Assembly: GCA_000091205.1 (NCBI GenBank)
Contig: AP006491.2
Strand: one strand, 5' to 3'
DNA from: Cyanidioschyzon merolae
Taxonomy: Eukaryota
Length of the DNA stretch: 64,000 nt
Shown here: positions 1 to 63,756 of the stretch, piece by piece
How the letters are laid out: every line of letters begins with the position of its first letter
Position numbering within the stretch: the first letter of the stretch is position 1
Translations under genes and position numbers: made by a program
The notes under the pieces: generated by a model
What the model saw: the letters and a program-made list of their open reading frames with translations, nothing else
The model's database searches: none
Told to the model about the DNA's origin: nothing

Positions 1-1780
1 GCCTCCCGAGCAGCGCAACCTTATTTTTCTGCACGCCGTTCAGGACGACGAGATTCGTAGCAAGAGCGCTGGGGCTCGACCGCCGGTTCGCAAGGGCCTC
101 TTCTAAGGATCGCACAGGCCAACCGCTATCCTAGGATCGCTTTCGTCGAGGTGCACAGCATCGCGGATCATTCGAGTGGCTGCAGCGTCGTTCGTGGAGC
201 GGCAGCAGGCGGCGCATGCGCGCAGCGAGGCGTTCCACTCACAAAGTGGTGCGTTCTGGAATACCTATACCAGCATGAACGTTATGATTTTGTTTTGGTT
301 TTCTCGTAGGCATTCAGAAATAGGAATGGAGCGCGTGGCTTCGAGAAAGATCGCGGTAAAGCTTCATGCTGTGACTGCTAGCTTGCGAATAACGGCATGA
401 ATTCTGCAAGTTCGTCATTCTTTAGTCAGTGGATGGATGCGCCATCGCTTCACTAGTCCGTATTTCGAACATTGTGCACCAAAAGCAGAAGTTCTCAAAG
501 CATACTTACACGACTACCTCCTCGCGAATCCATTCGACTCTGTCCGTCTTATCCGGAATACTACAAATGAAGTCGTAGGATTTGAAGTTTTCGTATCGTT
601 CAGACAAACGGTGATGACGAGATGCAGATGGACAATGTGAAAGACGCCATCACCAAGATTGAAGCACCCAGAATTGGATGCCATGAACAGCAGCCGAACG
701 CTACGCTCTGCAGCGTACTCAATGACCGCTTTTGCGTGATGAAAAGCGATGTTGTCTAAGGGCCGGAAAAGAGATTTTGGGAAGCAGCAGCCGCTGCATG
801 CCTCATCGAAGAATGAGGTGATGAGTGATTCCCTCCGTTCGGCGCGTTCTAGGCGGCGAAACGATCGCGTCGCAACCAGTGCTGACGTTGGCGCCACTCC
901 CGCTGGCCTCCTCTAAAAGAGCAGCGTTCAGCAGCTCTCTGAGTAGCGAATAATCCTGTACCATTTCTTCCAAATGAAGTCTTATCGAGTGAGGCGAGCA
1001 CCCGTTTTTCCTGGAGTAAGCGTCCGCGTTACATGACGAAACCGACAGTATGTTGTTCAACGCATGAGGGTCCCCCGTAGACGCGTGCTGCTTCATTCGT
1101 TCATCCGTGTTACTTGACCACCGTTCGGCTCGAGGGTACGGGAACTTCATATCACGAGGATTGTGCAGAAGTTTTTATTAGAAAACGTGTGCGTTGGAAT
1201 CAAATTGACATCGTGACAGTCTTTTGTATATAGTTTGATAAATACTGATTTTGGGGTGCACGAGGTTCACGATGAGGACTAGAAGAGCGGCGATTCATCC
1301 AGCCGCTGGCCCAAGGAATCGCTTGGATTCGTAAGGCGGCTTTTGCGTAAGCTAGCGGTGACAGCATATAAATGGTCTTCCCGGGCAATGCTCTCGTCCA
1401 CGAACAAGACTCGTTGTCGAATACCTGCAAGAAAAATAAACAAAAACAAAAAGAGAGTGCTTCTGCAAGTGTTCCAGAAGTAACTGCTTCGAGTTATACG
1501 AGCTTGGCTGAGCCCTGAGCAGGGCCAACAGCAGCGCTGTCGTGCGCTAGCGGCGGCACTTTTCGGCGCAGAAGTGCCGGCAGCCGTCGAGCCTGCGCTG
1601 CTGGCCGCTAAAGGAGAGTGTTATGGAGCGGACAGGTTGCCAAAGGGTCCGTGCGAGCCGCGACGCACCTGCCTTCGCACACTCCTTCTCCCGGGTGTTC
1701 CAGGTGCGGACGAAAAAAAGTCAGATCGGTAGTTTTGCAGCTTCGGAGGTATGCATGTTGAGTGTGGGTGGCAACAAGAA

Positions 1781-1884
1781 AGCCCTGTCCGCGATTCGAA
1801 CGAGATCCCTCGGAGGGTTCGGCTGTTCCGAGTCGGGACCTTCTGTTTACAAGACAGATGCTCTAACCGCTGAGCTAACAGGGC
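1781..1884 (-). tRNA. tRNA-Thr, anticodon UGU, with a 31-nt insertion (1803..1833) in the T-stem; possibly a non-canonical intron
   Basis: Reverse complement is GCCCTGTTAGCTCAGCGGTTAGAGCATCTGTCTTGTAAACAGAAGGTCCCG[ACTCGGAACAGCCGAACCCTCCGAGGGATCT]CGTTCGAATCGCGGACAGGGCT. Removing the bracketed 31 nt gives a 73-nt cloverleaf: a 7-bp acceptor stem, a 4-bp D stem, a 5-bp anticodon stem TCTGT/ACAGA, loop CTTGTAA (U33, UGU, A37), T-stem CCGCG/CGCGG, T-loop TTCGAAT, and discriminator U. The inserted segment contains its own hairpin CTCGGA/TCCGAG. Confidence 0.6.
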
Positions 1885-1941
1885 GGTAGTGAAATCGTTC
1901 GCAATTCCGCATATAAAGACCAAAATCCCGGTCGATGAGCA

Positions 1942-3522: not shown

Positions 3523-3663
3523 AAGATCGCGATGCGTACGAATTCGCGCGTGAGTGTCGAGCCTCCACGCACATGGCGGGTCAGCGTTTCAGTTTGCAGC
3601 TTCTTGTTCATAGTGCACATATCGGTGTGGAGGTTGGAGCAAAGTGTTTCTTGTTTTCGCTGG

Positions 3664-6345
3664 ATGGCGAAAACACAAGCGCGGCAAGGGCAGCGGAACG
3701 CGGGGACCGACACAGCGCAGGGTCTTGGTCAAACTGTCGCTCCAGCGGCGGAGCCCGAACCGAACGATGCTCGAGAAGCACCAGCTCCGCAGCTGGAGAC
3801 TTCTTTATATGATAACGACTGGACCCATCGAACACATGCACTCGATGTGTTACGGTGGCTTGGATTTGGTGACTCTGTTGAGGCGCGCAGGCTCCGACGG
3901 TCGTTTGTTGCGCGGAAGCGTTCGCACTCGCCGGGTCAGCAGCGAGCCGGCGCACCGCCTTCGGGCCAGAATCGTTTTGACGGTCACCGTCGGAGTGCCG
4001 AGGACTCTACCTTTGCAGATCTTGAGAACGCTCGCGACGCTGGCGCCGAAAGTTCGCCGCACTGTGTGCGATGTGGCACGGAGTATCACGGTGAGGTGAT
4101 CGTGCGCGACGTTACGTTCTGCGTGCCGAAGCGAGGCACGGGCTTCCTTCATCTTGGCTTCTGTGGCGCTGAGGTGGCGCCTTTGCTCGAGCACGTCTAC
4201 GCGTACTTTCCACCGGGCAAGCTGTCCGGCATTATGGGCCCTTCGGGTTCAGGGAAAACTACGCTCCTAAATCAGATCGGGGGACGCATCCGTACCCTGG
4301 GAGCGACCGTCGCCGGGGAGATTCTCATTGACGCACATCAAAGGCCGAAAAAGGCAAAACGCTTCGTCGGCTACTGTGAACAGAACGACGTCCTGCCCGG
4401 TGACTTAACCGTCCGAGAGGCGCTCTGGTACGCTGCCCAGTTGAAACTACCGGAGCACTTATCGGACGAGGAGCGTTGGCGACGCGTAGAAGAGGTAATT
4501 GAAATTCTGAGTCTCGAGAAAATAGCGGATCAGCGCATCGGCGCTGATAACGATCGACAAATCAGTGGCGGTCAGGCGAAGCGGGTCAGCATCGCACTGG
4601 AAGTCATTGGCGATCCCCCAATATTCCTTGCTGACGAGCCAACGAGTGGGCAGGATACGCGCACCGCTTACTCTGTATGCCAAGCTTTACAGAATGTGGC
4701 ACACATCGGAGGCCAAACGGTCATTGCGACGATTCACCAGCCCTCGGTGGATGCCTGGGCCCTCTTCGATAATTTGGTGATCCTGGCGGCAGGTCGGGTG
4801 CTGTACAGTGGACGCGCGCAGCGTTTCCGCGACTACCTTATGCGAATAGAATTCCCGATTCCGGACAACCTCCATATAGCTCTACCTGACTACTTTATTG
4901 CCGTTGGTGTCAAGGCCGAAAAGAAGGAGCATCGCCTGAAAGGCAAAGGAGCAAGGAACTTTGATGACGAACAGGAGGACGAGGATCAGGACTTCGAAGG
5001 TGATGGTAACGACAACACCGTACAAGGCAATTTTGCTGAAATGAACATAACGGCCCACAAAAGATCCACTCGCGGTCAGCGTCGTGCGAAAACCTGGATA
5101 TCGGGGCTCACGCTTCCCTTTGCTGCACAGGAGTCAAGTCTGCGGTCCAGACGAATGACACGTGAGCGCAGTTGTACAGCATCAAACATGGACAACATTG
5201 CCGAGGTAGCTCGCCGCACCTTCGAGCAGCGTCAATTGTCCCATTATTCCGCAGTGAACGCTAGTCTGCCAGAGGAACACGAGCGAGCCATCAGGCAACG
5301 CACTGATGGCGACGACGCCCTCGTCGAGTCGATACTCGAGCGGCAGCGCTCTCAGTCACCAATGATGACATTTCGCCGCACCCCACAGGAATGGCGTGAG
5401 ATCTGGGAGCAGACTACCGAATACAAACGCCTTCGCTATGTTGCTGAGAGCCGCGCGAAATGCCTCGGGGAGTGCGGACTGCCGTACGCGTTCGGTGAAC
5501 CGACGTACATCACGAGCTGGTGGCGACAATTCCGGACGCTAACGGTACGCGCGTTTCAAGGCGAGGCGACGTCGCCACGTTTTCTCGCTTATCGCCTCAT
5601 CCTGGTGATCCTCGTGAATCCCGCAGGTCTGGCTACGATTTTTTGGCCTGCTCTGCGGCATCATTCGTCGTTGGCTCAGAACACTGCAGCAGCATCCTTT
5701 GTCGTGGCTGTCGCCAGTTGCATGGCGATTATGCGCACCTCCGTCGCGTTTTTGGAAGGGCGTGCGCTCATGTATCGTGAACGCTCTAGCGGTGCGTATC
5801 GCTCCTCCGCGCATTACCTGTCGACAATCGCCATGGAGGCACCGTTCAACGTATTAACCGCGATTGTTTTCTCCATTCTGGACTACTGGGCATTTGGTTA
5901 CCGCAAGAACGTCGGAGCGTTCTTTTTCTTCCTTTTCATCGTATACTTGAGCAATGCTTGTGCAGTGGGTATTGGACAGGGCCTGGCAGCGATTGCCCCG
6001 GACATAACGTTCGCATCGTCCTTTGCACCGGTTGTCTACATGACGTTTGCGGTTCTCGCGGGCTATCTGCTGCCACAGAGCCTCATCCCAATTTACTGGA
6101 AAGTTCTTCTGTACTACGCGAATCCGATCAGCTGGGCGTTTCGAGCGATCCTTCTGAATGAGTGGCAGCCGTACCTGGACGGAGCAACGCCGCCACCCTA
6201 CTTAGACTATCGTTCGGAACTGCGAACGCTTGGTTTGGAAAATCAGAGCAGATGGACAAGTGTCTACGTGTTGGTGGGCATTTATGCCGGCGCACGGCTC
6301 GTGACCTACGTCTTTCAGCGTTTCCTGAAATACGCCCATAACTAG
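3664..6345 (+). CDS. ABC transporter, ABCG/White-type half transporter (N-terminal nucleotide-binding domain then ABC-2 membrane domain); an alternative upstream ATG exists at 3532
   Basis: Walker A GPSGSGKTTLLN. ABC signature ISGGQAKRVSIALE. Walker B IFLADEPTSGQD. H-loop ATIHQPS. A C-terminal multi-helix hydrophobic domain. An acidic linker (DDEQEDEDQDFEGDGNDN) sits between the two domains. Stop codon TAG. Confidence 0.85.
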   Translation: MAKTQARQGQRNAGTDTAQGLGQTVAPAAEPEPNDAREAPAPQLETSLYDNDWTHRTHALDVLRWLGFGDSVEARRLRRSFVARKRSHSPGQQRAGAPPSGQNRFDGHRRSAEDSTFADLENARDAGAESSPHCVRCGTEYHGEVIVRDVTFCVPKRGTGFLHLGFCGAEVAPLLEHVYAYFPPGKLSGIMGPSGSGKTTLLNQIGGRIRTLGATVAGEILIDAHQRPKKAKRFVGYCEQNDVLPGDLTVREALWYAAQLKLPEHLSDEERWRRVEEVIEILSLEKIADQRIGADNDRQISGGQAKRVSIALEVIGDPPIFLADEPTSGQDTRTAYSVCQALQNVAHIGGQTVIATIHQPSVDAWALFDNLVILAAGRVLYSGRAQRFRDYLMRIEFPIPDNLHIALPDYFIAVGVKAEKKEHRLKGKGARNFDDEQEDEDQDFEGDGNDNTVQGNFAEMNITAHKRSTRGQRRAKTWISGLTLPFAAQESSLRSRRMTRERSCTASNMDNIAEVARRTFEQRQLSHYSAVNASLPEEHERAIRQRTDGDDALVESILERQRSQSPMMTFRRTPQEWREIWEQTTEYKRLRYVAESRAKCLGECGLPYAFGEPTYITSWWRQFRTLTVRAFQGEATSPRFLAYRLILVILVNPAGLATIFWPALRHHSSLAQNTAAASFVVAVASCMAIMRTSVAFLEGRALMYRERSSGAYRSSAHYLSTIAMEAPFNVLTAIVFSILDYWAFGYRKNVGAFFFFLFIVYLSNACAVGIGQGLAAIAPDITFASSFAPVVYMTFAVLAGYLLPQSLIPIYWKVLLYYANPISWAFRAILLNEWQPYLDGATPPPYLDYRSELRTLGLENQSRWTSVYVLVGIYAGARLVTYVFQRFLKYAHN

Positions 6346-8899: not shown

Positions 8900-10417
8900 T
8901 CACTGCCTCCGCAACAAGAGCATAGACGGTGTGCCAAGATGGGTCGGAACGAAGAGCCAAGAATACCGCGCTGCGCTTATGACCACCACCGCTACCCCCA
9001 AGGCAACCATGCTCGAAAGCAGCAAGAGACTCGCGCTGCTGACGCACGGTCGCTGCAGCAGCAACGACCTGGCTTTGCCGCTACCGCCACCAACACTGTA
9101 AACGGATGCCGAGGCCCAAGTGCTCTCGGCAGCAGCACTTATTGCTAGACTCTTGAGCGTGGAAACTTTGGAATGTGCCGCATCGGGCACCTTCGATACC
9201 CAAAATCCGTTTCCATGTTGGCGCTCTGGAACTCCTTTCCTGTTCGCGCCTGTATCGACTGAAGCAGCGGCGGCGGCGGCGACAGCGGCTGGATCCATTC
9301 GTACGGTGGAGCGCATTCTCCGATACCGAAAGAGCGTCGCAAACAAGTGGATGCGGGCCACCTGGAATATCTCATCACCGCTGCGCAAGTCCAGCATGGC
9401 CGCACAGAAGCGGTTACAGCGCTCGTCGCGATAGCGACTTGTCGGTAAGCCGTCGGCCTTGATGAAGACGGCAGCCCCGCCGCCCGCTGCCTGGTTACTA
9501 CCACGTACAACGAAAACACCATCATCGAAGACGGCGTTCCTGCTGCAACCGAATTCGTCTCGATACCTGGAGAGGATAAAACGTGCAATATCCACGTGGA
9601 AGGTCGAACGCGGAATCCGTCCCAAATAGTCGGGGAAGGCGTCCAAGAAGTAGTCGCAGACAGCCCCGATTCCGGCAGGCGACGCGCCAATATTCGTAAC
9701 GGTGAAAGTGCATCTCCGCTGGTTCAGAAGTGGCAGCATCAAACACTTGCTGAAGACTGGTGACTGTATCCGGCGCCCGCGATGCTTCATAGAGATCATG
9801 GTGAGCCCGAGATGGATGACAAAGGGGTACGCTCCGTGTGCGCCTCTTTCGGAGCCCAGGCCAGACGTGTCCAGATACACCATTGCGGTGAAGGCGCACG
9901 GTTCACCGTCAGGAGCGAATGCAACCGTCACAATACGATTAGCGAGTGCTGCACGCGGTCTAGGCCCAAATACACCGTAACTCGGGAGTGCGTCCATGGA
10001 ATTGCGTCCAACGTGCTCGATCAGGCGAACGAGCGCGCTGAGCTCACGGTTGGTCATCCATCGCCCCGGCTGGTCGTATGTGCAGGTTCGATACCCAGCT
10101 TGCAACGTTGAGTGCCAGGCTAACACCAGCGGGTCACGCAAGTACCCTAACCTTGTCCGAAATTGACGTGCGTTATCTGCGAGGACGACATCAGTGCCAA
10201 ATATTTTCAGCAAGAACTGCGCAAGAACTAAAGCCGTTTTTCTCCATTCGCGCACAAGAGCAGTATGCTTCAAATCGAGAAATAGTACGGCGAGAATCGG
10301 AGATGAAGCGATCGCAAGTGTGCCTCCTAGCAGGAGCCGAAGACACCACCAGAGGAGCCAAAGCGCAGCGCGTCTTCCCTGGCAGGCCTCAACGCGCTCT
10401 GAAGATAACGATAGCAT
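8900..10417 (-). CDS. Hypothetical protein (N-terminal transmembrane segment, then a globular region and a low-complexity tail); function unknown
   Basis: An intergenic ORF of about 505 codons starting from the first ATG (10417; the track start at 10438 is TTG). A hydrophobic stretch near the N-terminus (LWLLWWCLRLLLGGTLAIA). No motif I can name. Some of the C-terminal 150 aa may be spurious. Confidence 0.4.
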   Translation of the reverse strand: MLSLSSERVEACQGRRAALWLLWWCLRLLLGGTLAIASSPILAVLFLDLKHTALVREWRKTALVLAQFLLKIFGTDVVLADNARQFRTRLGYLRDPLVLAWHSTLQAGYRTCTYDQPGRWMTNRELSALVRLIEHVGRNSMDALPSYGVFGPRPRAALANRIVTVAFAPDGEPCAFTAMVYLDTSGLGSERGAHGAYPFVIHLGLTMISMKHRGRRIQSPVFSKCLMLPLLNQRRCTFTVTNIGASPAGIGAVCDYFLDAFPDYLGRIPRSTFHVDIARFILSRYRDEFGCSRNAVFDDGVFVVRGSNQAAGGGAAVFIKADGLPTSRYRDERCNRFCAAMLDLRSGDEIFQVARIHLFATLFRYRRMRSTVRMDPAAVAAAAAASVDTGANRKGVPERQHGNGFWVSKVPDAAHSKVSTLKSLAISAAAESTWASASVYSVGGGSGKARSLLLQRPCVSSASLLLLSSMVALGVAVVVISAARYSWLFVPTHLGTPSMLLLRRQ

Positions 10418-21359: not shown

Positions 21360-24133
21360 CGATTGGTACAGCGGAAGCGCGGAGGGAAAATGAACGCGTG
21401 CACGTCCTGCACGAAAAACACCTCTTTTACAGCTTCGAGGGTACTCGGTATACAGGTGACGCGGATATTTACATGTACGGGGCGATGAAGTACCTGACGA
21501 ACCTGAAGAACCATGTGACGATGAACCTCGAACGTTTCATGATACGCGCCGTGTTTGCGCTGTACCCGGGAATCTCACGCAAGGGGATATGGGCGATTAT
21601 CAATGGCGCCACGAACGATCGCAGGCATGAAGATGAGGTCGAATTTGTCGAGAAGAAGGCGTCAAACGAGAGCACGAATGAAGCTTCTGTAATCCGTGCG
21701 GCTATGCAAGAGCACGGCGCAGTCATGGGGCTACCGAATCCAACAGAAAAGATGTCAGAGTTAAAAAAAGATAAGGAAAGGTACTATCGCCTCATCCTGC
21801 GCTATTTTGTGTTTCTGAATCGTGAACTCGAACGCAAGGCGGAGATGAAGCTGAGTGAAGAGACAAATGAAGAGTGGGAGAGACGGAAGGCTTTCCTAAT
21901 GGGGAAGCAGTTAAACGTGGTTCCGTTGTGCAACATCAAGTAGTATTTTGTGAGTATCGATTCAGGCGTCCTTTACGGCATCATGAAGGAGATCAGTCCG
22001 GGGTTCAATGTTAGCAGGGAGGACTTCATCGGTGAAAACCGGGAGACGTACTGGAAGAGTATCTTCGATTTCAAACGTCTCAAAGTCAGCAAACAAAAGT
22101 TATTCACTGGGATGATCGAAACCGATGGCGTAGCCATGTGTGCACACTATCGGCGGTTGAAGAAAGAGTGTCCAGTTCCACCCTCGGCTGCACCCGTGAC
22201 GAAGGATGAAGAAAACAAAGAAGAGGATCCTGCGATGCAGGAGGTGGAGGATAACGACTTTGTCGTTGACATTACGAAGGATGAAGATGAGAAGACGGCG
22301 GATCCTGCGACGCAGGAGGTGCAGGATAACGGCTTTATCATTGGCGCGGCGAAGCATGAAGAAAACAAAGAAGAGGATCCTGCGACTCAGGAGGTAGAGA
22401 ATAACGACCTTGTTGTTGACATTACGAAGGATGAAGATGAGAAGACGGCGGATCCTGCGACGCAGGAGGTGCAGGATAACGGCTTTATCATTGGCGCGGC
22501 GAAGCATGAAGAAAACAAAGAAGAGGATCCTGCGACTCAGGAGGTAGAGAATAACGACCTTGTTGTTGACATTACGAAGGATGAAGATGAGAAGACGGCG
22601 GATCCTGCGACGCAGGAGGTGCAGGATAACGGCTTTATCATTGGCGCGGCGAAGCATGAAGAAAACAAAGAAGAGGATCCTGCGACTCAGGAGGTAGAGA
22701 ATAACGACCTTGTTGTTGACATTACGAAGGATGAAGATGAGAAGACGGCGGATCCTGCGACGCAGGAGGTGCAGGATAACGGCTTTATCATTGGCGCGGC
22801 GAAGCATGAAGAAAACAAAGAAGAGGATCCTGCGACTCAGGAGGTAGAGAATAACGACCTTGTTGTTGACATTACGAAGGATGAAGATGAGAAGACGGCG
22901 GATCCTGTGATGCAGGAGGTGCAAGATAACGACCTTGTCGTTGACGCGACGAAGCATGAAGAAAACAAAGAAGAGGATCCTGCGACTCAGGAGGTAGAGA
23001 ATAACGACCTTGTTGTTGACATTACGAAGGATGAAGATGAGAAGACGGCGGATCCTGTGATGCAGGAGGTGCAAGATAACGACCTTGTCGTTGACGCGAC
23101 GAAGCATTAAGAAAACAAGAAGGCGGATCCTGCGATGCAGAATGTGCAGGATAACGACTTTGTCGTTGGCGCGGACCCTGGGAATACGAATATCATAACC
23201 ATCGCTGTACCCAAGCGTGCGGAAGATGGTACTGAAGGTAATTTACGTCAGAAAGACATGCGTCTTTTGAGATTCTCGAGGGCAAGATATTACCGAGAAT
23301 CCGGTATAATGAATGCGAGGAAGAAAATCGAGACTTGGAATTCAGGAATGAAAGAGCGCCTGGAAGCTTTGAGCGAGGTGACGAGCCGCGGAGCGGATTA
23401 TGAAGCTTTTCGGAGATTCATGGAAGTTCGTGTTGCCCATTGGGATGCGCTGTGGAAGGAGTATACAAAGCCCAGTTGGGCTCGTCTGCGAATGAATCTG
23501 TACGGTGTGAAGCAGCGGGCGTTTGCGAATTTTTTCAATCAGTTGAGCGCCCTGAAGGAGGATGAAAGTCAGAGGCTCGTAGTAGCATACGGAGCAGGGC
23601 GATGGAAGACCCAAAAAGGGACTACGCCAGCTCCAACGACAAGAACGTATAAGGAGTGCGCACGGCGTTTTGCCTCGATACCTATAGACGAGTTTCAAAC
23701 ATCGTATACACACCATGAACTGAGGTGCACACTCCAGAGGGCCGAGATGGAAAAGTGCCAGACGAACCCTGAGGATATGAAAAAGTACGGACCGCTGACG
23801 GAAGAGCAAATGGAAAGGAGGACGAAAGTTCGAAGATTATTTGTATTAGTAAGTACAACCGATGACGGCAAGAAACGCATGGAATTCGTGAACCGTGACT
23901 TTAACGCCGTTATCAATCTAAGGAGATGTGCGGTGCTGGAGAAAAGATCTCCAGATTCGACAAGAGGGAACTTTGTTGGACAACCTATCCAAGTCGAACT
24001 ATATGAGAAAAAGTTGGAAGCAGTAGTGAGTGGCTGGTCCATAGAGACGGGGAGGCGTCTGTACGTCAGTTGGAGACTTCTTGTCAAGGGCGGGTTTCTC
24101 GCCACTACTGTACACTGCTGTCGTTCGACTTAG
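21356..24133 (+). pseudogene. TnpB/Fanzor-like RuvC-nuclease ORF (about 925 codons) interrupted by two in-frame stops (TAG 21941..21943, TAA 23108..23110)
   Basis: A single reading frame runs across 21356..21943, 21950..23110 and 23135..24133. RuvC-I-like motif: NDFVVGADPGNTNIITIAV. TnpB 'YTSQ'-like motif: IPIDEFQTSYTHHELRC. RuvC-III-like motif: FVNRDFNAVINLRRCAV (the D-x-NAA-x-NI pattern of TnpB/Cas12/Fanzor). The TAA lies where every other repeat unit has GAA. Confidence 0.65.
22230..23107 (+). repeat. In-frame tandem repeat, 75-bp unit (25 aa), two alternating subtypes forming a 150-bp higher-order repeat, about 11.7 units
   Basis: Units DPA(M/T)QEV(E/Q)DND(F/L)VVDITKDEDEKTA alternate with DPATQEVQDNGFIIGAAKHEENKEE. 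The unit resembles the sequence just before RuvC-I (MQNVQDNDFVVGADPG). This periodicity generates the long antisense ORF at 22100..23107. Confidence 0.85.
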
Positions 24134-55953: not shown

Positions 55954-58641
55954 TCATTGCAGCGTTGACGGGACCGGCGAGCGGCTGAGCGCACGTGCCA
56001 CATACCCAACCCGGTCGGCAATAATCCCATCGACCTGCCATTCTATGAGCTGCATCGCACAGTCGGGTACCGTGTTCGACCGGCCATAGCACATGACCAG
56101 GAGTCGGTACTTGTGATGCGCTAGCCGAATCAAGGAAGGTCCCGCTGCCAGGAGGATCTCGTTGAAGAATACCACGCCGCTGAGGCGTGCCTGCGAGGCG
56201 AACTCGAGCGCGCGCTCAGCTCGCAACCGGCGGGGGTCACTGTATACGACGTCGCCGTCACGGTCCTCAGAACAGAGGAAAAAAACGCGACAAACGTTTT
56301 GCTTGCGACGCAGCAGCAAACAGACTTCAGGATCGAATGAAAGGAACGAAAGGCGAGAACCAAGGCGAGCTGAGGCGTCTGCACCCCCGCGACGTACGGG
56401 CGCGAAAGCGACGCTGAAGACGGTGTCTAGTACGCGGTCTACGAGGTAGTTGCGCTCGGGGGCCGGCACCTGCTCTCGACCTGAACCCTCGGGAAGTGGA
56501 TATTTGATCTCCACAAGCAGGTGGACAAACGCTGGCACCTTTCGCAGCACGTGCTCTAAGGTCGGCATAGAGTCGCGGATTACCGACTGGTGTTGTCGAC
56601 AGTGGACACAGAGGTGGTATCCGCTGCGCGTTGGCTTCGCTTTTTCGGGTGCAGCGCTTGCCTCAGCGGCGCTGCTTCCATCGAATTGGCTCGAGACTTT
56701 TGACGACTTGTTCGACTCGCTGGGTAGTGTAACGAGCGACGCTGCCACGGACGCACCTCTCGACGGATCGCACCCGAACTCGCTAGTGTTCAGTGCCCAG
56801 GGCGCCGAACTGTGATCCATATGCCTGTTCAGGGCTTGGAAGCGCTCGGTTGGAGACGCCCGCTGCGCGTGGACGAAGGTGGTGACACCCTGATCCCGGT
56901 CGGTTTCAAGTGAGCTTGGGAAATCCAAATCTTTTCGTCGCAGCAGCAACGCCGATGCTCGCTTCCATTCCTCGAGATCCATGGTGAAGATGGGGCGCGC
57001 TACACAACAGCGACTTGGTCTGGCGTTCTGCGGACAGCGAGGGCGATGTTGCGGCCTGGGCACGCCGTATCCGCGTATGAAGCAAGCTGCGGAGGAAGGA
57101 GATTTCTCGCTGTCCTCGTCGTCGTCGTCGTCGTCGTCGTCGTCATCGTGGTCGATGTTGTCGTCCAGAGCATTGGATAGATAGGGCAGCTGCTGCCCGC
57201 CCCAGTCTTGGGAGATTTCCGGGCCGCTTGGGCAAGGATATACGCTGACCGAAGAGGCACGCTGCGGAAACAGGCCCACCTGCAGAGGCTCAGACTTTGG
57301 CTCCCAAAAATTTGGCGCTGCTGACCAGTCCGCTTCGAAGCCGGACGGTCCAAAAATATCGGGTGGCGGAATCGATGCTGAAGCGCTAACCATATCTGGT
57401 GGCGCTCTCTGAGAGCTAACCAAGCGGCCAGAGGAGGCGGTGACGCTTGTGCTACCGAGCCTGCGCTGCGGGTGCGGTAGCCTCAGGACTGCATCGTGGT
57501 GCACCACCGGTACTCCGTCTCGAGTGAGCTGAACATCGAGCTCGACCGCCCGAACATTCTTGCCTCGGATAGCCGCAAGAAAGCTGAGCAACGTATTCTC
57601 CTGCAACAACGACGTTGTCTGTTCGCCGTCTCCCCGATGACCGATGAGCGGCGTGCAGAGCAGCATCGATTCTTCCGCGGCAGCAGCGACGGGAAACGGA
57701 GCTTCCTCTGCAGAGTCTCCACTGAGCGTCGGGTCCGTTGCAGCGAAATGCGCCAGAATGAACCTGGGCGGCTTACTCCCGGGTCCACGAGTTTGTTCGA
57801 GGGCAGCGTTGAACGCAGCGCGGCTGTGCTGTCCCTGATACGGCTCGATCAACATGTACGAAAAGACAAATTCACCAACAACACGACCAAGAGCGGTCAC
57901 AATTGGCCTTTTCATGCGGAAACCGAAGCGATTCCCGTCTGCTGCGCGATGATCATCTCTGAGGAGGAGCTCCGACCCGAGCACCGCCGCTCGACCAAGA
58001 TACATGCGTTCGCTAACATCCGATCCCGGCTGCAGTGCGAAGAAAGCCACGACAAAATCGAAAGCATGAGGTGTGCCCTGAAACGCCACTGTACCCGACG
58101 GCGTTTGGTGTTGGCCCTCTTGAGGCAGACCAGCGCCCCGACGCGCCTGCAGCTCGGCGAACTCTGCAGTTATGGACTCGGCGTATGGCTGCGCAGGCTC
58201 CCCAAGCGGTGCATGCAGCCGCACTCGCCACTTGTTCGCGCCAAACGAAGTCATGGAGACGCGTTCAGCAAAACTTTCGAGGCTGACTAGCTCGGCGTCG
58301 CTGATAACAAAGTCGAGCTCAAGGTCGGCGCCAACTACGGACCAGCCACAGCCAGCACGAAAGCGCACACTTGACGCCACACACGGAGCTGCTGGGGCAC
58401 CGAGTGTCACGCGCAAAGAGCGCACACACTGCACGCCGGCGTCGTCTACCCACAGAGTGCCGGTCACCGGAGACCGTCTCCCTTCCATATGCGGTGTAAA
58501 CCAGTCGCCCGGCCTCGAAGCGGTGCCCATGAGCACGGAACCCACACGGTGCTCGTGCCCCGACTCCATTGTAAGTGAAGTGCAACTCTCCAACTGCTCT
58601 TCCTGAATCGTTCCAAGAAGTATACGGTTTGTTCGAGCCAT
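55954..58641 (-). CDS. Protein with a glycerophosphodiester phosphodiesterase (GDPD) domain, a long N-terminal extension and a poly-Asp tract
   Basis: GDPD core LIGHRGDGEQ..ENTLLSFLAAIRGKNVRAVELDVQLTRDGVPVVHHD. An internal acidic run DDDDDDDDDDDE (the (tcg)n tract at about 57117-57150). The first ATG is at 58641. The track start at 58731 would read through the (CA)n microsatellite. Confidence 0.8.
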   Translation of the reverse strand: MARTNRILLGTIQEEQLESCTSLTMESGHEHRVGSVLMGTASRPGDWFTPHMEGRRSPVTGTLWVDDAGVQCVRSLRVTLGAPAAPCVASSVRFRAGCGWSVVGADLELDFVISDAELVSLESFAERVSMTSFGANKWRVRLHAPLGEPAQPYAESITAEFAELQARRGAGLPQEGQHQTPSGTVAFQGTPHAFDFVVAFFALQPGSDVSERMYLGRAAVLGSELLLRDDHRAADGNRFGFRMKRPIVTALGRVVGEFVFSYMLIEPYQGQHSRAAFNAALEQTRGPGSKPPRFILAHFAATDPTLSGDSAEEAPFPVAAAAEESMLLCTPLIGHRGDGEQTTSLLQENTLLSFLAAIRGKNVRAVELDVQLTRDGVPVVHHDAVLRLPHPQRRLGSTSVTASSGRLVSSQRAPPDMVSASASIPPPDIFGPSGFEADWSAAPNFWEPKSEPLQVGLFPQRASSVSVYPCPSGPEISQDWGGQQLPYLSNALDDNIDHDDDDDDDDDDEDSEKSPSSAACFIRGYGVPRPQHRPRCPQNARPSRCCVARPIFTMDLEEWKRASALLLRRKDLDFPSSLETDRDQGVTTFVHAQRASPTERFQALNRHMDHSSAPWALNTSEFGCDPSRGASVAASLVTLPSESNKSSKVSSQFDGSSAAEASAAPEKAKPTRSGYHLCVHCRQHQSVIRDSMPTLEHVLRKVPAFVHLLVEIKYPLPEGSGREQVPAPERNYLVDRVLDTVFSVAFAPVRRGGADASARLGSRLSFLSFDPEVCLLLRRKQNVCRVFFLCSEDRDGDVVYSDPRRLRAERALEFASQARLSGVVFFNEILLAAGPSLIRLAHHKYRLLVMCYGRSNTVPDCAMQLIEWQVDGIIADRVGYVARALSRSPVPSTLQ

Positions 58642-58675
58642 GAATATCGTTAATGATTCGAACGCCAGCAATAAC

Positions 58676-58694
58676 CACACACACACACACACAT
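58676..58694. repeat. (CA)n microsatellite in the 5' leader of the GDPD gene
   Basis: cacacacacacacacacat, read directly from the sequence. Confidence 0.8.
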
Positions 58695-58789
58695 AGACAC
58701 CGTATTTTTCGGATAAGCGAATCTGGCGCATACCGATGCAATCGGATCAGGCGCCAGCATCGCAGCATCGATGCGGCTTCGTATCCGGG

Positions 58790-59170
58790 ATGCGCGTAGC
58801 CGCTGCGATTCCGCGATGATGGACTAGATGGATGACGGGATCGAGCGATGATGGACTAGATGGATGATGGGATTCTGCGATGCTTTATTAGACGGATCAT
58901 GGGATCGAGCGATGCTTTATTAGACGGATCATGGGATCGAGCGATGCTTGACTAGATGGACGATGGGATTCAGCGATGATGGACTAGATGGATGATGGGA
59001 TCGAGCGATGCTTTATTAGACGGATCATGGGATCGAGCGATGATTGACTAGATAGATGCTGCGATTCAGCGATGATGGACTAGACGGATGATGCGATTCC
59101 GCGATGATGGACTAGATGGATGATGGGATTCATCGATGCTTGACTAGATAGATGATGGGATTCCGCGATC
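58790..59170. repeat. Minisatellite, about 30-31-bp unit x about 12 (gcgatgatggactagatggatgatgggatYS variants)
   Basis: Head-to-tail units with variants (gatgctttattagacggatcatgggatcgagc / gatgatggactagatggatgatgggattc). It lies between the GDPD 5' end and the 3' end of the EFL1-like gene. Confidence 0.8.
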
Positions 59171-59955: not shown

Positions 59956-62900
59956 CTACTTTTTACGAGCGAGCGTTCGTTGCTTCTCGGCACGCTCGAC
60001 GAGTTTATAGGCAACCAGCCGGCCTTTGCGTGCTCGGACTTGCTCCATCAAGTTACGCGCCAAGTTATTCATGGACGCGGTGGTGTCCTCCACGCCCAGT
60101 AATTCGATATCCTCGGCGGTGGCCGGGTACCAGAAGGGATCCTCTTCGATCACCTTCCAGTCGCCGACGAAGCGCAGCTCGACATCACTGGCGACGCCGC
60201 TACTCGCCCGGCGTATCTTCTCTGCAAGACCGAAAATCGCAGATGCAGGGACTAGTGCGCGAATGAAGAACGTGGAAGTAACCTGATACTCTTTGATTTG
60301 TTCGCTGAGCACTTGGGCGCGGGCTGCTCGCAACACAGTGTGAACCCGACCGAGAGCATTGGACGAGCACTGCACCTCTGTCTGGAAGAGCGGCTCGACA
60401 AGTCGCGGGTTCGCAGCCAAAAGCGCCTGGCGAAGCGCCTCTGTCAGAAGCGAGATCAGGCTGGTAGCGTCCCTGGTGGAGGAGGCGCTCAATGAACCGG
60501 CCCGCGTCGCTGAGTCCGATGTCTCTTGACATTCGTCTGCAACATGCACCACGAAGCAGACGCCCTGGAGAGGCTCCTCCACAAGGGGACCGGCAGCACA
60601 AACCACCTGGAACGCCGAAACCAGCGCCCGATACACTGTGGTCGGCAACGATCCCTCTGCGGCTGCCGTGGTGCTCGGGAGCGGCTGGCCCCAGACCTGC
60701 CGAAAAACGTCGCGAATTCTATCCCAGTGACGCATTTCAGAGCGACTTGCAGCTCCTGCGGCGTGTTCTGCTTCCGTGTTGGCTTCAGGAGCATCGCTTT
60801 CAAGGTCTTGGGGCCGCTCATGATGCGTGTGGTACCCGGCAGTCGCTGCCGTTGCCGCTGCCGCTGTCGCCGGTACCACCAACACGTTCGAACCGCAGTC
60901 GTGCGGACCCAGCGCTGCAGCCTGCTCCACCAGCATACGGAATAACGTCGCAAGGCGACGCTGAGCGGTACCGTCCGTTATGCTGCATTCATGCGGTGAG
61001 CATTCGGCTCCCTGCTCGACTAGCGCTGACGGTGCTGGACGCTGATCCGCGGAACCCGCATCTTCCATAACGGCCCGGTGGAGGCGCACGAGCAACTCCG
61101 CTTGGAGCCGTGGCGCAGTGGCAGGTCGCTGGGAGGCAACCCCACGCTTCGGTTGGAGAAAGAGTGAGCGCAGCGCGCCTCGACTCGAGGATTCCCATGC
61201 TTGCACGAACGTTCTCGGCAGTGGAGCTGCATAGATGTATAGCGTGATATTGTGGGACGGCAACGGCACCGGCACGATGCCGCCACCGAGGAGCACGCGA
61301 TGCTGCTCTTCGCGGTATCCGCTCCATGAGGCCCACTTTTCCAGCGCCGCAGCGCCGCTGAACGTTGACGAAGCGTCCGCCATTGAACCGAGTGCTGCAC
61401 GCTCGTGAACACTCGTCTGTTCGAAGCGTTCCGCCAGCGACTCGAGTACAGAATCGGTGTTTTCCGTCGCAGTGCTCGACTGGCCTGCACCATGCACAGC
61501 GGCGCCACTGAGGCCACCGACACCAGCCGATCGCGTGAGCAGGACGACCCAGGGGTTTGCGGGACTCGTCGACACTCCACCAGCAACCGTTTCCCGTACT
61601 GCCGTCATCGGTGCAGAGCATTTGACCGGCACACCCGCGAAACGTTCTTCGAGGTCGCACAGGCAGCGCTGGAGGTGCAGTTCTCCGCTGACACCGAGCA
61701 CCATTTCGCCTGACCCTGAGATGAACGTCTCCACCGCTGGGTCCGCCTGATTGAGGAGACGCAGGCCCCGACGAAGTCGTGGCAGATCAGAGAGCTGCGC
61801 TGCCGGCTCCACAGCGAAAAAAACCACCGGACTCGTCTGTCCGTGGCGCAAGAGGTTCGCACACGGCAGACAACGCCCCGGCGGAAGTGTCGAAATCGTT
61901 GCCGACTTGAGAATCACCTCCCCGACACCATACAGTGCAACCACTGCACCAGGTACGAGCCGTTGTCGAACTGATGTCTCCGTCTCCATCCGGTCTCTGA
62001 GCGAGGCGACGTCTCGTCCATGCAGCAGAAAGGCTTCCAGACGCGCATCTGGAAGCCGCACACAGAAAGGTTCCGTGTGTGTCTCTGCATCTTCGGCGTT
62101 ATACCGAGGTCCGTACACGAACAGTTCACCAAACCGCGAGGAAACCTCCACTGCACCGCAGAGAATACGGCCCAGTGCGAGCTGGACCTGCTGGTCTCGT
62201 TCGAAACGCTGCTGGGGCTCCCAGCACTCGTCCTCCTCCTCCTGGGTGTCGGAACCCGCCGGAGGGCGCCTAGCCGGGCGTGCCGCCACGCCGAGTGCCG
62301 CAAGCGCAGCGCCCTCGACACCCATCACTTTGCTCACATAAATCATTACCGGGGCTTCGTCGGAGATGTCGCCCTCGCTGATCGCCCTGGCCAGTACCTG
62401 GGCCAAGGGATGCTGCGTAGCATCATGAGGCCACAGATTTCCCAGCCGCTGCCGGTTTGCGATCACGGCAGCGGGTACCAGGTCCACCACAGCGTCCAGC
62501 ACGGTCTGACTCAACGGCAACCAGCGAGAGAGCATACTCTGCAGCGCATAGCGCCCATCGCGATGAAAGAGGTCGCGCTCTGGAACGGCAATGCCGAGTC
62601 GCTCGACCAAACGTTGCCGCTCGGAGCGGTCGACCTGCTCATCATTGGCACTCTTGACCAATCGTTGATAGAGGTAAGCGATTGGTTCAAGGACAAACTG
62701 CGCAAAAAGACTCCGTGGTGGGCGTCCGCTCGCTGTCAGACTTTCCCGGATCCGCTGGACCCGTTTCTGCTTAGCATCAATGTAAAAGTCACCCCAGAGG
62801 GTGCGATCGAGCACCTCCTGGCGAATCCCAAAGCGCTGCGCCACGAACTGGACCATATCCGCGAGCCGAAACGCCCATCCGTCCAAGGCAGATGCGAACA

Positions 62901-63756
62901 CCACGTTGCCAGCTGCTGGTTCGAAGAGGGTTTCCTCCTCGTGGACTTCCGCCTGATCCGTTGGCATTGATGGGTGTATTTCGACCGCAGGCACTGCTCG
63001 CGCCGTCACCTGAGCACTGGTACAGGTCGTCTCTTGATCGGGGGCGCACGCCCAAAGCGAGGCCTGCTCTTCCAGGCGCAGCCGCTGCTCTGCGATATGG
63101 GCGCCAAGCACAGCATTGGCATCCTCGAGAACACGTCGCAGGTGCAGGTATGCTTCGGTGGCATCCAGTTGCAGTTCCAGGAACAGTCGATCGATCTTGT
63201 TCAACACCAGAATCGGCTGGAGTCCCTCGCTCAATGCCTGCCGGAGAACTGTGCGTGTTTGGCTGCAGACTCCCTCAACGACATCAACGACGATGAGCGA
63301 GCCGTCACTGAGCCTTGCAGCTGCCGATACCTCAGCTGCGAAATCCACATGACCCGGCGAGTCCAGCAACGTTACGACGTATTCGTCTGCGGCTTTCGTG
63401 TTGGCTTCGCGACCACCATAGCGATGATAGAGCGTGACGCCTGCCGACTTCATGGTGATGCCTCGATTCTGCTCATCGTCGCGAAAGTCCAGATATCGCG
63501 CTTTGCCTACGAGTCGCTGAGAGAGAAAACCGTTCGACATGAGCAGGGAGTCCGTCAGCGTGGTCTTTCCATGGTCTATATGACCAGTCACGCAGATGTT
63601 ACGCAGTCGAAGTGGAGCCTCCGTCAAAATTCGGCGAATGCGGTGGAGCCTCTCGAGCTCTCCGCCGGCCGGTGAGCGGCTTGGCTGACGGAAACGTCGC
63701 CCCGGCGGGTGCACTGTGGAGGTTTCCGGAATGCGTTCTTCCGCGGGTAACAACAT
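59956..63756 (-). CDS. EFL1: Elongation-factor-2-like GTPase of the EFL1/Ria1 type (ribosome assembly GTPase) with large internal insertions
   Basis: G1 NICVTGHIDHGKTTLTDSLL. G3 LLDSPGHVDFAAEV. G4 LVLNKIDRL (NKID as in EFL1, rather than the NKMD of EF-2). EF-2-like domains II-V are recognisable downstream. 1266 codons is longer than a typical EFL1. ATG start at 63756. Confidence 0.85.
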   Translation of the reverse strand: MLLPAEERIPETSTVHPPGRRFRQPSRSPAGGELERLHRIRRILTEAPLRLRNICVTGHIDHGKTTLTDSLLMSNGFLSQRLVGKARYLDFRDDEQNRGITMKSAGVTLYHRYGGREANTKAADEYVVTLLDSPGHVDFAAEVSAAARLSDGSLIVVDVVEGVCSQTRTVLRQALSEGLQPILVLNKIDRLFLELQLDATEAYLHLRRVLEDANAVLGAHIAEQRLRLEEQASLWACAPDQETTCTSAQVTARAVPAVEIHPSMPTDQAEVHEEETLFEPAAGNVVFASALDGWAFRLADMVQFVAQRFGIRQEVLDRTLWGDFYIDAKQKRVQRIRESLTASGRPPRSLFAQFVLEPIAYLYQRLVKSANDEQVDRSERQRLVERLGIAVPERDLFHRDGRYALQSMLSRWLPLSQTVLDAVVDLVPAAVIANRQRLGNLWPHDATQHPLAQVLARAISEGDISDEAPVMIYVSKVMGVEGAALAALGVAARPARRPPAGSDTQEEEDECWEPQQRFERDQQVQLALGRILCGAVEVSSRFGELFVYGPRYNAEDAETHTEPFCVRLPDARLEAFLLHGRDVASLRDRMETETSVRQRLVPGAVVALYGVGEVILKSATISTLPPGRCLPCANLLRHGQTSPVVFFAVEPAAQLSDLPRLRRGLRLLNQADPAVETFISGSGEMVLGVSGELHLQRCLCDLEERFAGVPVKCSAPMTAVRETVAGGVSTSPANPWVVLLTRSAGVGGLSGAAVHGAGQSSTATENTDSVLESLAERFEQTSVHERAALGSMADASSTFSGAAALEKWASWSGYREEQHRVLLGGGIVPVPLPSHNITLYIYAAPLPRTFVQAWESSSRGALRSLFLQPKRGVASQRPATAPRLQAELLVRLHRAVMEDAGSADQRPAPSALVEQGAECSPHECSITDGTAQRRLATLFRMLVEQAAALGPHDCGSNVLVVPATAAAATAATAGYHTHHERPQDLESDAPEANTEAEHAAGAASRSEMRHWDRIRDVFRQVWGQPLPSTTAAAEGSLPTTVYRALVSAFQVVCAAGPLVEEPLQGVCFVVHVADECQETSDSATRAGSLSASSTRDATSLISLLTEALRQALLAANPRLVEPLFQTEVQCSSNALGRVHTVLRAARAQVLSEQIKEYQVTSTFFIRALVPASAIFGLAEKIRRASSGVASDVELRFVGDWKVIEEDPFWYPATAEDIELLGVEDTTASMNNLARNLMEQVRARKGRLVAYKLVERAEKQRTLARKK

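Follow-up and report, generated by a model that had tools for sequence, protein, structure and literature searches.

The DNA analysed here, a stretch of 64,000 nucleotides referred to below as the window, carries a tRNA-Thr(UGU) gene at positions 1781-1884 of the minus strand, and the 5′ strand of its T-stem is interrupted by 31 nt. This is very probably a functional nuclear gene, probably single-copy, containing a protein-spliced intron of the bulge-helix-bulge (BHB) type at an ectopic site, between tRNA positions 51 and 52 in the TψC-stem. We favor a functional spliced gene because the exons, the splice geometry and a promoter-like element are all conserved in related lineages, in contrast to the divergent flanks and intron loop. 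The feature itself is already known, as it belongs to the ectopic-intron tRNA genes published for Cyanidioschyzon merolae 10D. What is added here is the conservation of the intron and of its BHB nucleotides beyond C. merolae, namely in Cyanidiococcus and an uncultured third lineage, together with a mis-call of the gene by ARAGORN as tRNA-Tyr(GTA).

The split gene and its proposed transcription signals

The Rfam tRNA family RF00005 matches positions 1781-1884 of the minus strand with 47.7 bits (E=4.2e-07; gathering score 29), and this is the sole gathering-level Rfam tRNA match in the 64-kb window. The Rfam alignment fits an insertion of about 33 nt ahead of the T-arm, i.e. in the variable region. 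The precursor RNA of 104 nt reads GCCCUGUUAGCUCAGCGGUUAGAGCAUCUGUCUUGUAAACAGAAGGUCCCG (exon 1), ACUCGGAACAGCCGAACCCUCCGAGGGAUCU (intron) and CGUUCGAAUCGCGGACAGGGCU (exon 2). Cutting out the 31 nt (RNA positions 52-82, window 1833-1803) leaves a 73-nt RNA whose minimum free energy (MFE) structure, at -29.4 kcal/mol, is the exact cloverleaf, with stems of 7, 4, 5 and 5 bp in which 21 of the 21 pairs are Watson-Crick. The spliced tRNA has the anticodon loop CU-UGU-AA, the T-loop UUCGAAU and the discriminator U, and ARAGORN run on the spliced 73-nt sequence returns tRNA-Thr(tgt). All possible 31-nt deletions were tried, and 51/52 alone gives zero mismatched stem pairs. Exon 1 comprises the 5′ strand of the acceptor stem, the D-arm, the anticodon arm with UGU, the variable loop AGGUC and the first three nucleotides of the T-stem (CCG). 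[quoted passage not shown] The intron therefore lies in the TψC-stem and not at the canonical eukaryotic site 37/38. The sequence-only reading had proposed a canonical tRNA-Thr(UGU) once 31 nt are removed, with perfectly paired stems, canonical T- and anticodon loops, and an insertion that splits the T-stem as CCG/CG between positions 51 and 52. The fold, the ARAGORN call and the deletion scan bear out each of these points. Its coordinates were also right, and the strand, which it had left unstated, is the minus strand. The positions of the individual elements are collected in Table 1.

Table 1. Elements of the tRNA-Thr(UGU) locus, in window coordinates.
Element	Position	Strand	Description and basis
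Exon 1	1834..1884	(-)	tRNA positions 1-51; Rfam alignment, post-splicing cloverleaf
Intron, 31 nt, ACUCGGAACAGCCGAACCCUCCGAGGGAUCU	1803..1833	(-)	between tRNA positions 51/52; unique deletion register
Exon 2	1781..1802	(-)	tRNA positions 52-73; Rfam alignment and cloverleaf
Helix H, exon strand GUCC (RNA 46-49)	1836..1839	(-)	pairs with intron GGAU, RNA 77-80, window 1805-1808
5′ splice-site bulge C50 G51 / A52	1833..1835	(-)	3 nt, cut after the 2nd; canonical BHB geometry
Intron hairpin h′	1809..1832	(-)	RNA 53-58 CUCGGA with 71-76 UCCGAG, 6 bp, 12-nt loop
3′ splice-site trinucleotide C81 U82 / C83	1802..1804	(-)	in an open region, without closing outer helix
TATA-like block CTTTATATGCGGAATT (probable promoter element)	1903..1918	(-)	-34 to -19 upstream; conserved in an otherwise unaligned flank
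T7 run (tentative terminator)	1713..1719	(-)	62-68 nt 3′ of the discriminator; sequence reading

The gene escapes common annotation tools. ARAGORN with default settings reported 0 tRNA in the window. In its intron mode (-i), it called a tRNA-Tyr(gta) with an 18-nt intron in the anticodon loop; we consider this candidate an artefact, as it is absent in the orthologues and ignores the perfect UGU arm. On the orthologues, ARAGORN made no call at all. The Thr(UGU) gene is thus overlooked by common tRNA finders or mistaken for Tyr(GTA), a trap in the annotation of genomes with ectopic introns.

The TATA-like block upstream of the gene follows the consensus CTTTATAT(G/C)C(G/C)GAATT, with 14-16 of its 16 nt conserved in three lineages, and is a probable Pol III promoter element. 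According to the text of Soma et al. (2013, PMC3728597), TATA-like sequences precede most C. merolae tRNA genes, and tRNA transcription in this alga appears to be TATA-like-dependent rather than TFIIIC-dependent. The T-stretch downstream of the C. merolae gene is weak: directly 3′ there is only UUUCUUGUU (T3), and the nearest run of at least 4 T is the T7 run, which we tentatively assign as the Pol III terminator. In the relatives, runs of T4-T5 occur about 10-20 nt from the gene.

The host genome and its published tRNA set

Judged by its coding content, the window is nuclear DNA of C. merolae 10D, because five of its ORFs match 10D proteins residue for residue (BAM79981, BAM79986, BAM79987, BAM79989 and BAM79990), whose genes share a single contig of 810,151 bp. 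It has a GC content of about 54% and consists of long uninterrupted ORFs with spacers between them. Two tandem repeats were observed elsewhere in the window. At 22198-23168, the ORF 21950-23110 (+) contains a 75/150-nt repeat, with 12.9 copies for the 75-nt period and 6.5 copies, matching at 96%, for the 150-nt period; the repeat is on a strongly purine-rich strand (GC skew 0.16 and AT skew 0.17 over 20-24 kb) and looks like a repetitive coding region. At 58813-59169, about 11 copies of a 32-nt (also 96-nt) repeat occupy the spacer between a GP-PDE-domain gene (55954-58731, -) and an EF2-like gene (59956-63756, -). Finally, the ABCG transporter ORF 3532-6345 has exact matches only in JGI metagenome contigs, and no NCBI accession of C. 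merolae contains it; this gene may be missing from the 10D annotation or be annotated there with another start.

C. merolae is one of the few unusual eukaryotes to which, besides Archaea, the sequence-only reading had ascribed such introns, and ectopic BHB introns are documented in strain 10D. Soma et al. (2013, Sci Rep 3:2321, PMC3728597) give in their text 42 introns, ectopic or canonical, in 27 of the 43 nuclear tRNA genes. The lengths given there are 11-69 nt, and the introns are distributed over position 37/38 (17), the D-stem (5), the D-loop (14), the variable arm (1), the TψC-stem (1) and the TψC-loop (4). Ectopic sites show motifs from the strict hBHBh′ to the relaxed hBH and HBh′, and the same text reports relaxed motifs as splicing substrates. 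The 31-nt intron of Thr(UGU) is almost certainly, by elimination, the single TψC-stem intron of that catalogue, because the text gives exactly one intron in this class and Thr(UGU) has one. The name of the gene with that intron appears in PMC3728597 only in Fig. 2, and we found no explicit naming of Thr(UGU) or Thr(TGT) as the gene with the TψC-stem intron in the running text of the C. merolae literature, nor any mention there of intron conservation in Cyanidiococcus or in a third lineage. PlantRNA 2.0 states that the C. merolae tRNA introns are annotated in that resource. The two other Thr genes of C. merolae, CGT and AGT, are circularly permuted; therefore, Thr(UGU) is the only Thr gene in conventional order.

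Splice-junction motif and its conservation in related lineages

The junctions were analyzed in the BHB register, with 3-nt bulges, each cut after the second nucleotide, and a 4-bp helix H between them. In this register, helix H forms with 4/4 pairs, its intron strand G77-U80 corresponding to intron positions -6 to -3. The outer helix h cannot form, since G45 faces G84, and the junction motif is therefore of the relaxed HBh′ class (H of 4 bp, bulge of 3 nt, h′ of 6 bp) and not a strict hBHBh′. The HBh′ class is accepted in the motif classifications for archaea and for C. merolae (for the latter, in the text of PMC3728597). The hairpin CTCGGA..TCCGAG noticed within the insert by the sequence-only reading is h′, which is present with its 6 bp, and the BHB motif that it had suggested looking for at the insertion boundaries is present in the correct register, in the relaxed HBh′ form.

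The BHB conformer would not be picked out by folding energies alone. Locally, the HBh′ register is not the MFE structure, with -9.9 vs -14.2 kcal/mol for a shifted helix of 7 bp that pairs nucleotides 44-50 with 76-82 and leaves a GAC bulge. The MFE fold of the whole precursor is a non-cloverleaf in which this shifted helix replaces the BHB register. The junction geometry is, nevertheless, far from chance expectation. When the 31-nt insert was shuffled with its composition kept, helix H together with an h′ of 3 bp or more was obtained at this register in 70 of 200,000 shuffles (p about 3.5e-4 or less), and an h′ reaching 6 bp in none of the 200,000.

For the comparison with related lineages, syntenic loci were fetched via orthologues of the ABCG-type transporter (937 aa) whose ORF adjoins the tRNA. 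Its best named relative is from Cyanidiococcus yangmingshanensis, with 76% identity, and the transporters of the lineages compared are 76-79% identical. Rfam detected orthologous tRNA genes in C. yangmingshanensis (L001, 8605-8707) and in a metagenome contig (L002, 7972-8074), both in the same orientation and upstream of the transporter. The metagenome contig is, on the evidence of its protein sequence, from a third lineage, because its transporter shares 87% identity with the Cyanidiococcus protein. Both orthologues carry an insertion of 30 nt at the identical 51/52 site. The exons are identical at 73 of 73 positions across the three lineages (exon 1, 51/51; exon 2, 22/22). The introns of the two relatives share 18-19 of 31 positions with that of C. 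merolae, clustered in the strands of H and h′, i.e. at the helix-forming ends, and the intron loops ACAGCCGAACCC, CGCCUCGCAAA and CAUGUCGUAUA are unrelated among the three. The 100-nt flanks are 24-48% identical and essentially unaligned, with the exception of the TATA-like block, which stands in a flank of otherwise about 45-50% identity.

All modelled pairs (acceptor, D, anticodon, H and h′) are standard in the three sequences (26/26). Helix H keeps its 4/4 pairs in the three lineages, the G46.U80 pair of C. merolae being G-C in the relatives, a single-sided change. The hairpin h′ likewise keeps 6 bp, and its closing pair is A-U in C. merolae vs U.G in the relatives, with both sides changed. 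The bulge C50 G51/A52 is invariant. Covariation is uninformative with three distinct sequences, as 159 of 500 shuffles did equally well. By these comparisons, the T-stem intron predates the split between Cyanidioschyzon and Cyanidiococcus-like algae, and only its BHB-forming nucleotides are under constraint.

An exact-match pattern of exon 1, which is independent of the intron, retrieved no intron-less copy from 241 million metagenome records; it matched four metagenome contigs, 4/4 with the C. merolae-type 31-nt intron. In a more distant cyanidiophyte contig (L003, ENA ERZ1300892), whose transporter is 61% identical, no tRNA was detected at the syntenic site by exact search, by search with 3 mismatches or by Rfam at E <=1, so that the tRNA-Thr gene has not kept its location in so distant a relative. 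Only about 740 bp (9262-10000) separate the transporter of this contig from its WD40 gene, and they contain no tRNA. The metagenome contigs L006 (5320-5424), L007, L008 and L009 carry the identical tRNA with the 31-nt intron, with upstream flanks 94-97% identical, and their similarity to the window indicates C. merolae-like populations in the sampled environments.

Conserved exons, splice geometry and promoter-like element amid diverged flanks and a diverged intron loop are to be expected of a functional, spliced tRNA gene, and are the reverse of pseudogene decay. Inactivation of a once-intact Thr(UGU) gene by a 31-bp insertion would fit with its rejection by a standard finder (0 genes with ARAGORN). 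Such a pseudogene is nonetheless very improbable: its exons would have remained identical at 73/73 positions in three lineages, next to a protein of 76-79% identity and within unalignable flanks. Furthermore, the helix-forming ends of the insertion are kept while its loop drifts, the TATA-like block upstream is conserved, and the minimal set of 43 tRNA genes has no obvious spare Thr(UGU). An origin as a tRNA-derived repeat or SINE-like retroelement, or by recent mobile insertion, has a negligible probability, given that no second copy of the 31-nt intron exists in the 64-kb window, even at the 12-mer level, that the 64 kb hold a single tRNA match, at a locus syntenic in three lineages, and that no target-site duplication is evident at CCG/A...U/CG. 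Selective conservation, synteny and the uniqueness of the intron in the window thus go against both of these origins; the sequence-only reading had already disfavored pseudogene decay.

Two further explanations accept a functional gene and differ in the fate of the 31 nt. In the Rfam alignment the insert falls in the variable region, and it folds into a stem-loop, as would be expected of an unspliced, class-II-like tRNA with an oversized variable arm. The T-stem of such a molecule would, however, consist of UCUCG/CGCGG (in the relatives, CUUCG) and contain wobble pairs as well as a U-C mismatch at its center, and its variable arm would reach about 36 nt, which is unprecedented in tRNA-Thr; a class II tRNA has an intact T-stem 5′ of the T-loop and an arm of about 10-24 nt. 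The upstream CCG completes a perfect T-stem once the insert is removed, and the host is documented in the text of PMC3728597 to splice such introns, so that an unspliced product appears extremely improbable. It is equally hard to believe that a real intron is removed outside the BHB endonuclease pathway, for instance by self-splicing or by a spliceosomal-type reaction, even if the absence of helix h, and hence of a strict hBHBh′, could be taken in this sense. The 31 nt are far below group I/II size (a group I ribozyme core exceeds 200 nt and is Rfam-detectable), no Rfam intron family matches at E <=1, and GU...AG boundaries are absent. Moreover, HBh′ is conserved in the exact BHB register, and relaxed motifs are among the substrates reported for C. 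merolae in the published text. The HBh′ motif and the same-site intron in two other cyanidialean lineages argue instead for the non-canonical tRNA intron that the sequence-only reading had put forward.

Proposed maturation of the precursor and known splicing systems

The gene, the precise limits of its intron, the conserved HBh′ geometry and the organism follow directly from the sequences; for the maturation of the tRNA, we infer the enzymes and the order of steps as follows. Transcription by Pol III would be driven by the TATA-like element upstream of the gene. Within the transcript, G46-C49, belonging to the variable loop and to the 5′ strand of the T-stem, would pair with the intron's 3′ end to form helix H, placing the 5′ splice site in the 3-nt bulge CG/A beside the intron hairpin h′. 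The HBh′ motif would then be cut by the cmSen endonuclease, and the exons would be ligated. Published text on C. merolae describes homologues of Sen2, Sen34 and Sen54, Sen15 not being identified there. The T-arm could fold only after splicing, and would then allow T-loop modification, with formation of ψ55 by cmPus4, end-processing and CCA addition. cmPus4 forms no ψ55 on pre-tRNA while a T-arm intron is retained. The RT-PCR and northern blots on tRNA processing described in the published C. merolae text concern Asn, Phe, Ile and Gly.

The T-stem intron might have been kept by selection as a maturation checkpoint and not as a neutral relic, a proposal that we regard as rather unlikely. Helix H would sequester the 5′ strand of the T-stem, so that the T-arm would stay unfolded until splicing, and this would delay ψ55 formation by cmPus4 and recognition by RNase P and tRNase Z. 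If this were true, function and not inertia would explain why an intron has been retained at the identical site, with its BHB nucleotides, since Cyanidioschyzon and Cyanidiococcus split.

Archaeal non-canonical tRNA introns are cleaved by EndA of the (αβ)2 or ε2 type at hBHBh′ or relaxed motifs. Those of the Crenarchaeota (Thermoproteales) and Nanoarchaeota resemble the intron of Thr(UGU) in being short, located outside the anticodon loop and provided with a hairpin, and archaeal introns share with it the 4-bp helix H and the 3-nt bulge cut after the second nucleotide. Unlike in archaea, the host is here a eukaryote with Sen2/Sen34/Sen54 homologues (Sen15 not identified), and no outer helix h closes the motif. 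Ectopic tRNA introns of a eukaryotic nucleus tie eukaryotic to archaeal tRNA splicing, a point that was made for C. merolae in 2013.

With the canonical eukaryotic intron at 37/38, the intron of Thr(UGU) has in common the presumed enzymatic logic of endonuclease plus ligase, as well as a relaxed, BHB-like motif in which one bulge is defined. It differs by its site, 51/52, and by a T-arm that cannot form before splicing. Because the site is 51/52 and not 37/38, a yeast-type ruler measuring from the mature domain cannot apply. Nuclear ectopic tRNA introns challenge the yeast/vertebrate model, in which the cut sites are measured from the mature tRNA body; this, too, was pointed out for C. merolae in 2013.

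Introns in the D- and T-regions of nuclear-type tRNA genes, like that of Thr(UGU), are also found in the red-algal lineage, in Chondrus crispus (PlantRNA 2.0) and in the nucleomorphs of cryptophytes and chlorarachniophytes. The D-loop and T-loop introns of Chondrus crispus have been experimentally validated, and the genes are scored as pseudogenes by tRNAscan-SE (PlantRNA 2.0). They occupy fixed loop positions, 20/21 and 58/59, whereas the Thr(UGU) intron is inside the T-stem, at 51/52. The closest likeness is with the ectopic introns of C. merolae 10D as described in the text of PMC3728597: the genome is the same, 31 nt falls within the 11-69 nt given there, the TψC-stem class, the HBh′ motif and the TATA-like element are shared, and those genes, like Thr(UGU), are missed by standard tRNA finders. 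From that published text, no difference between the two can be demonstrated.
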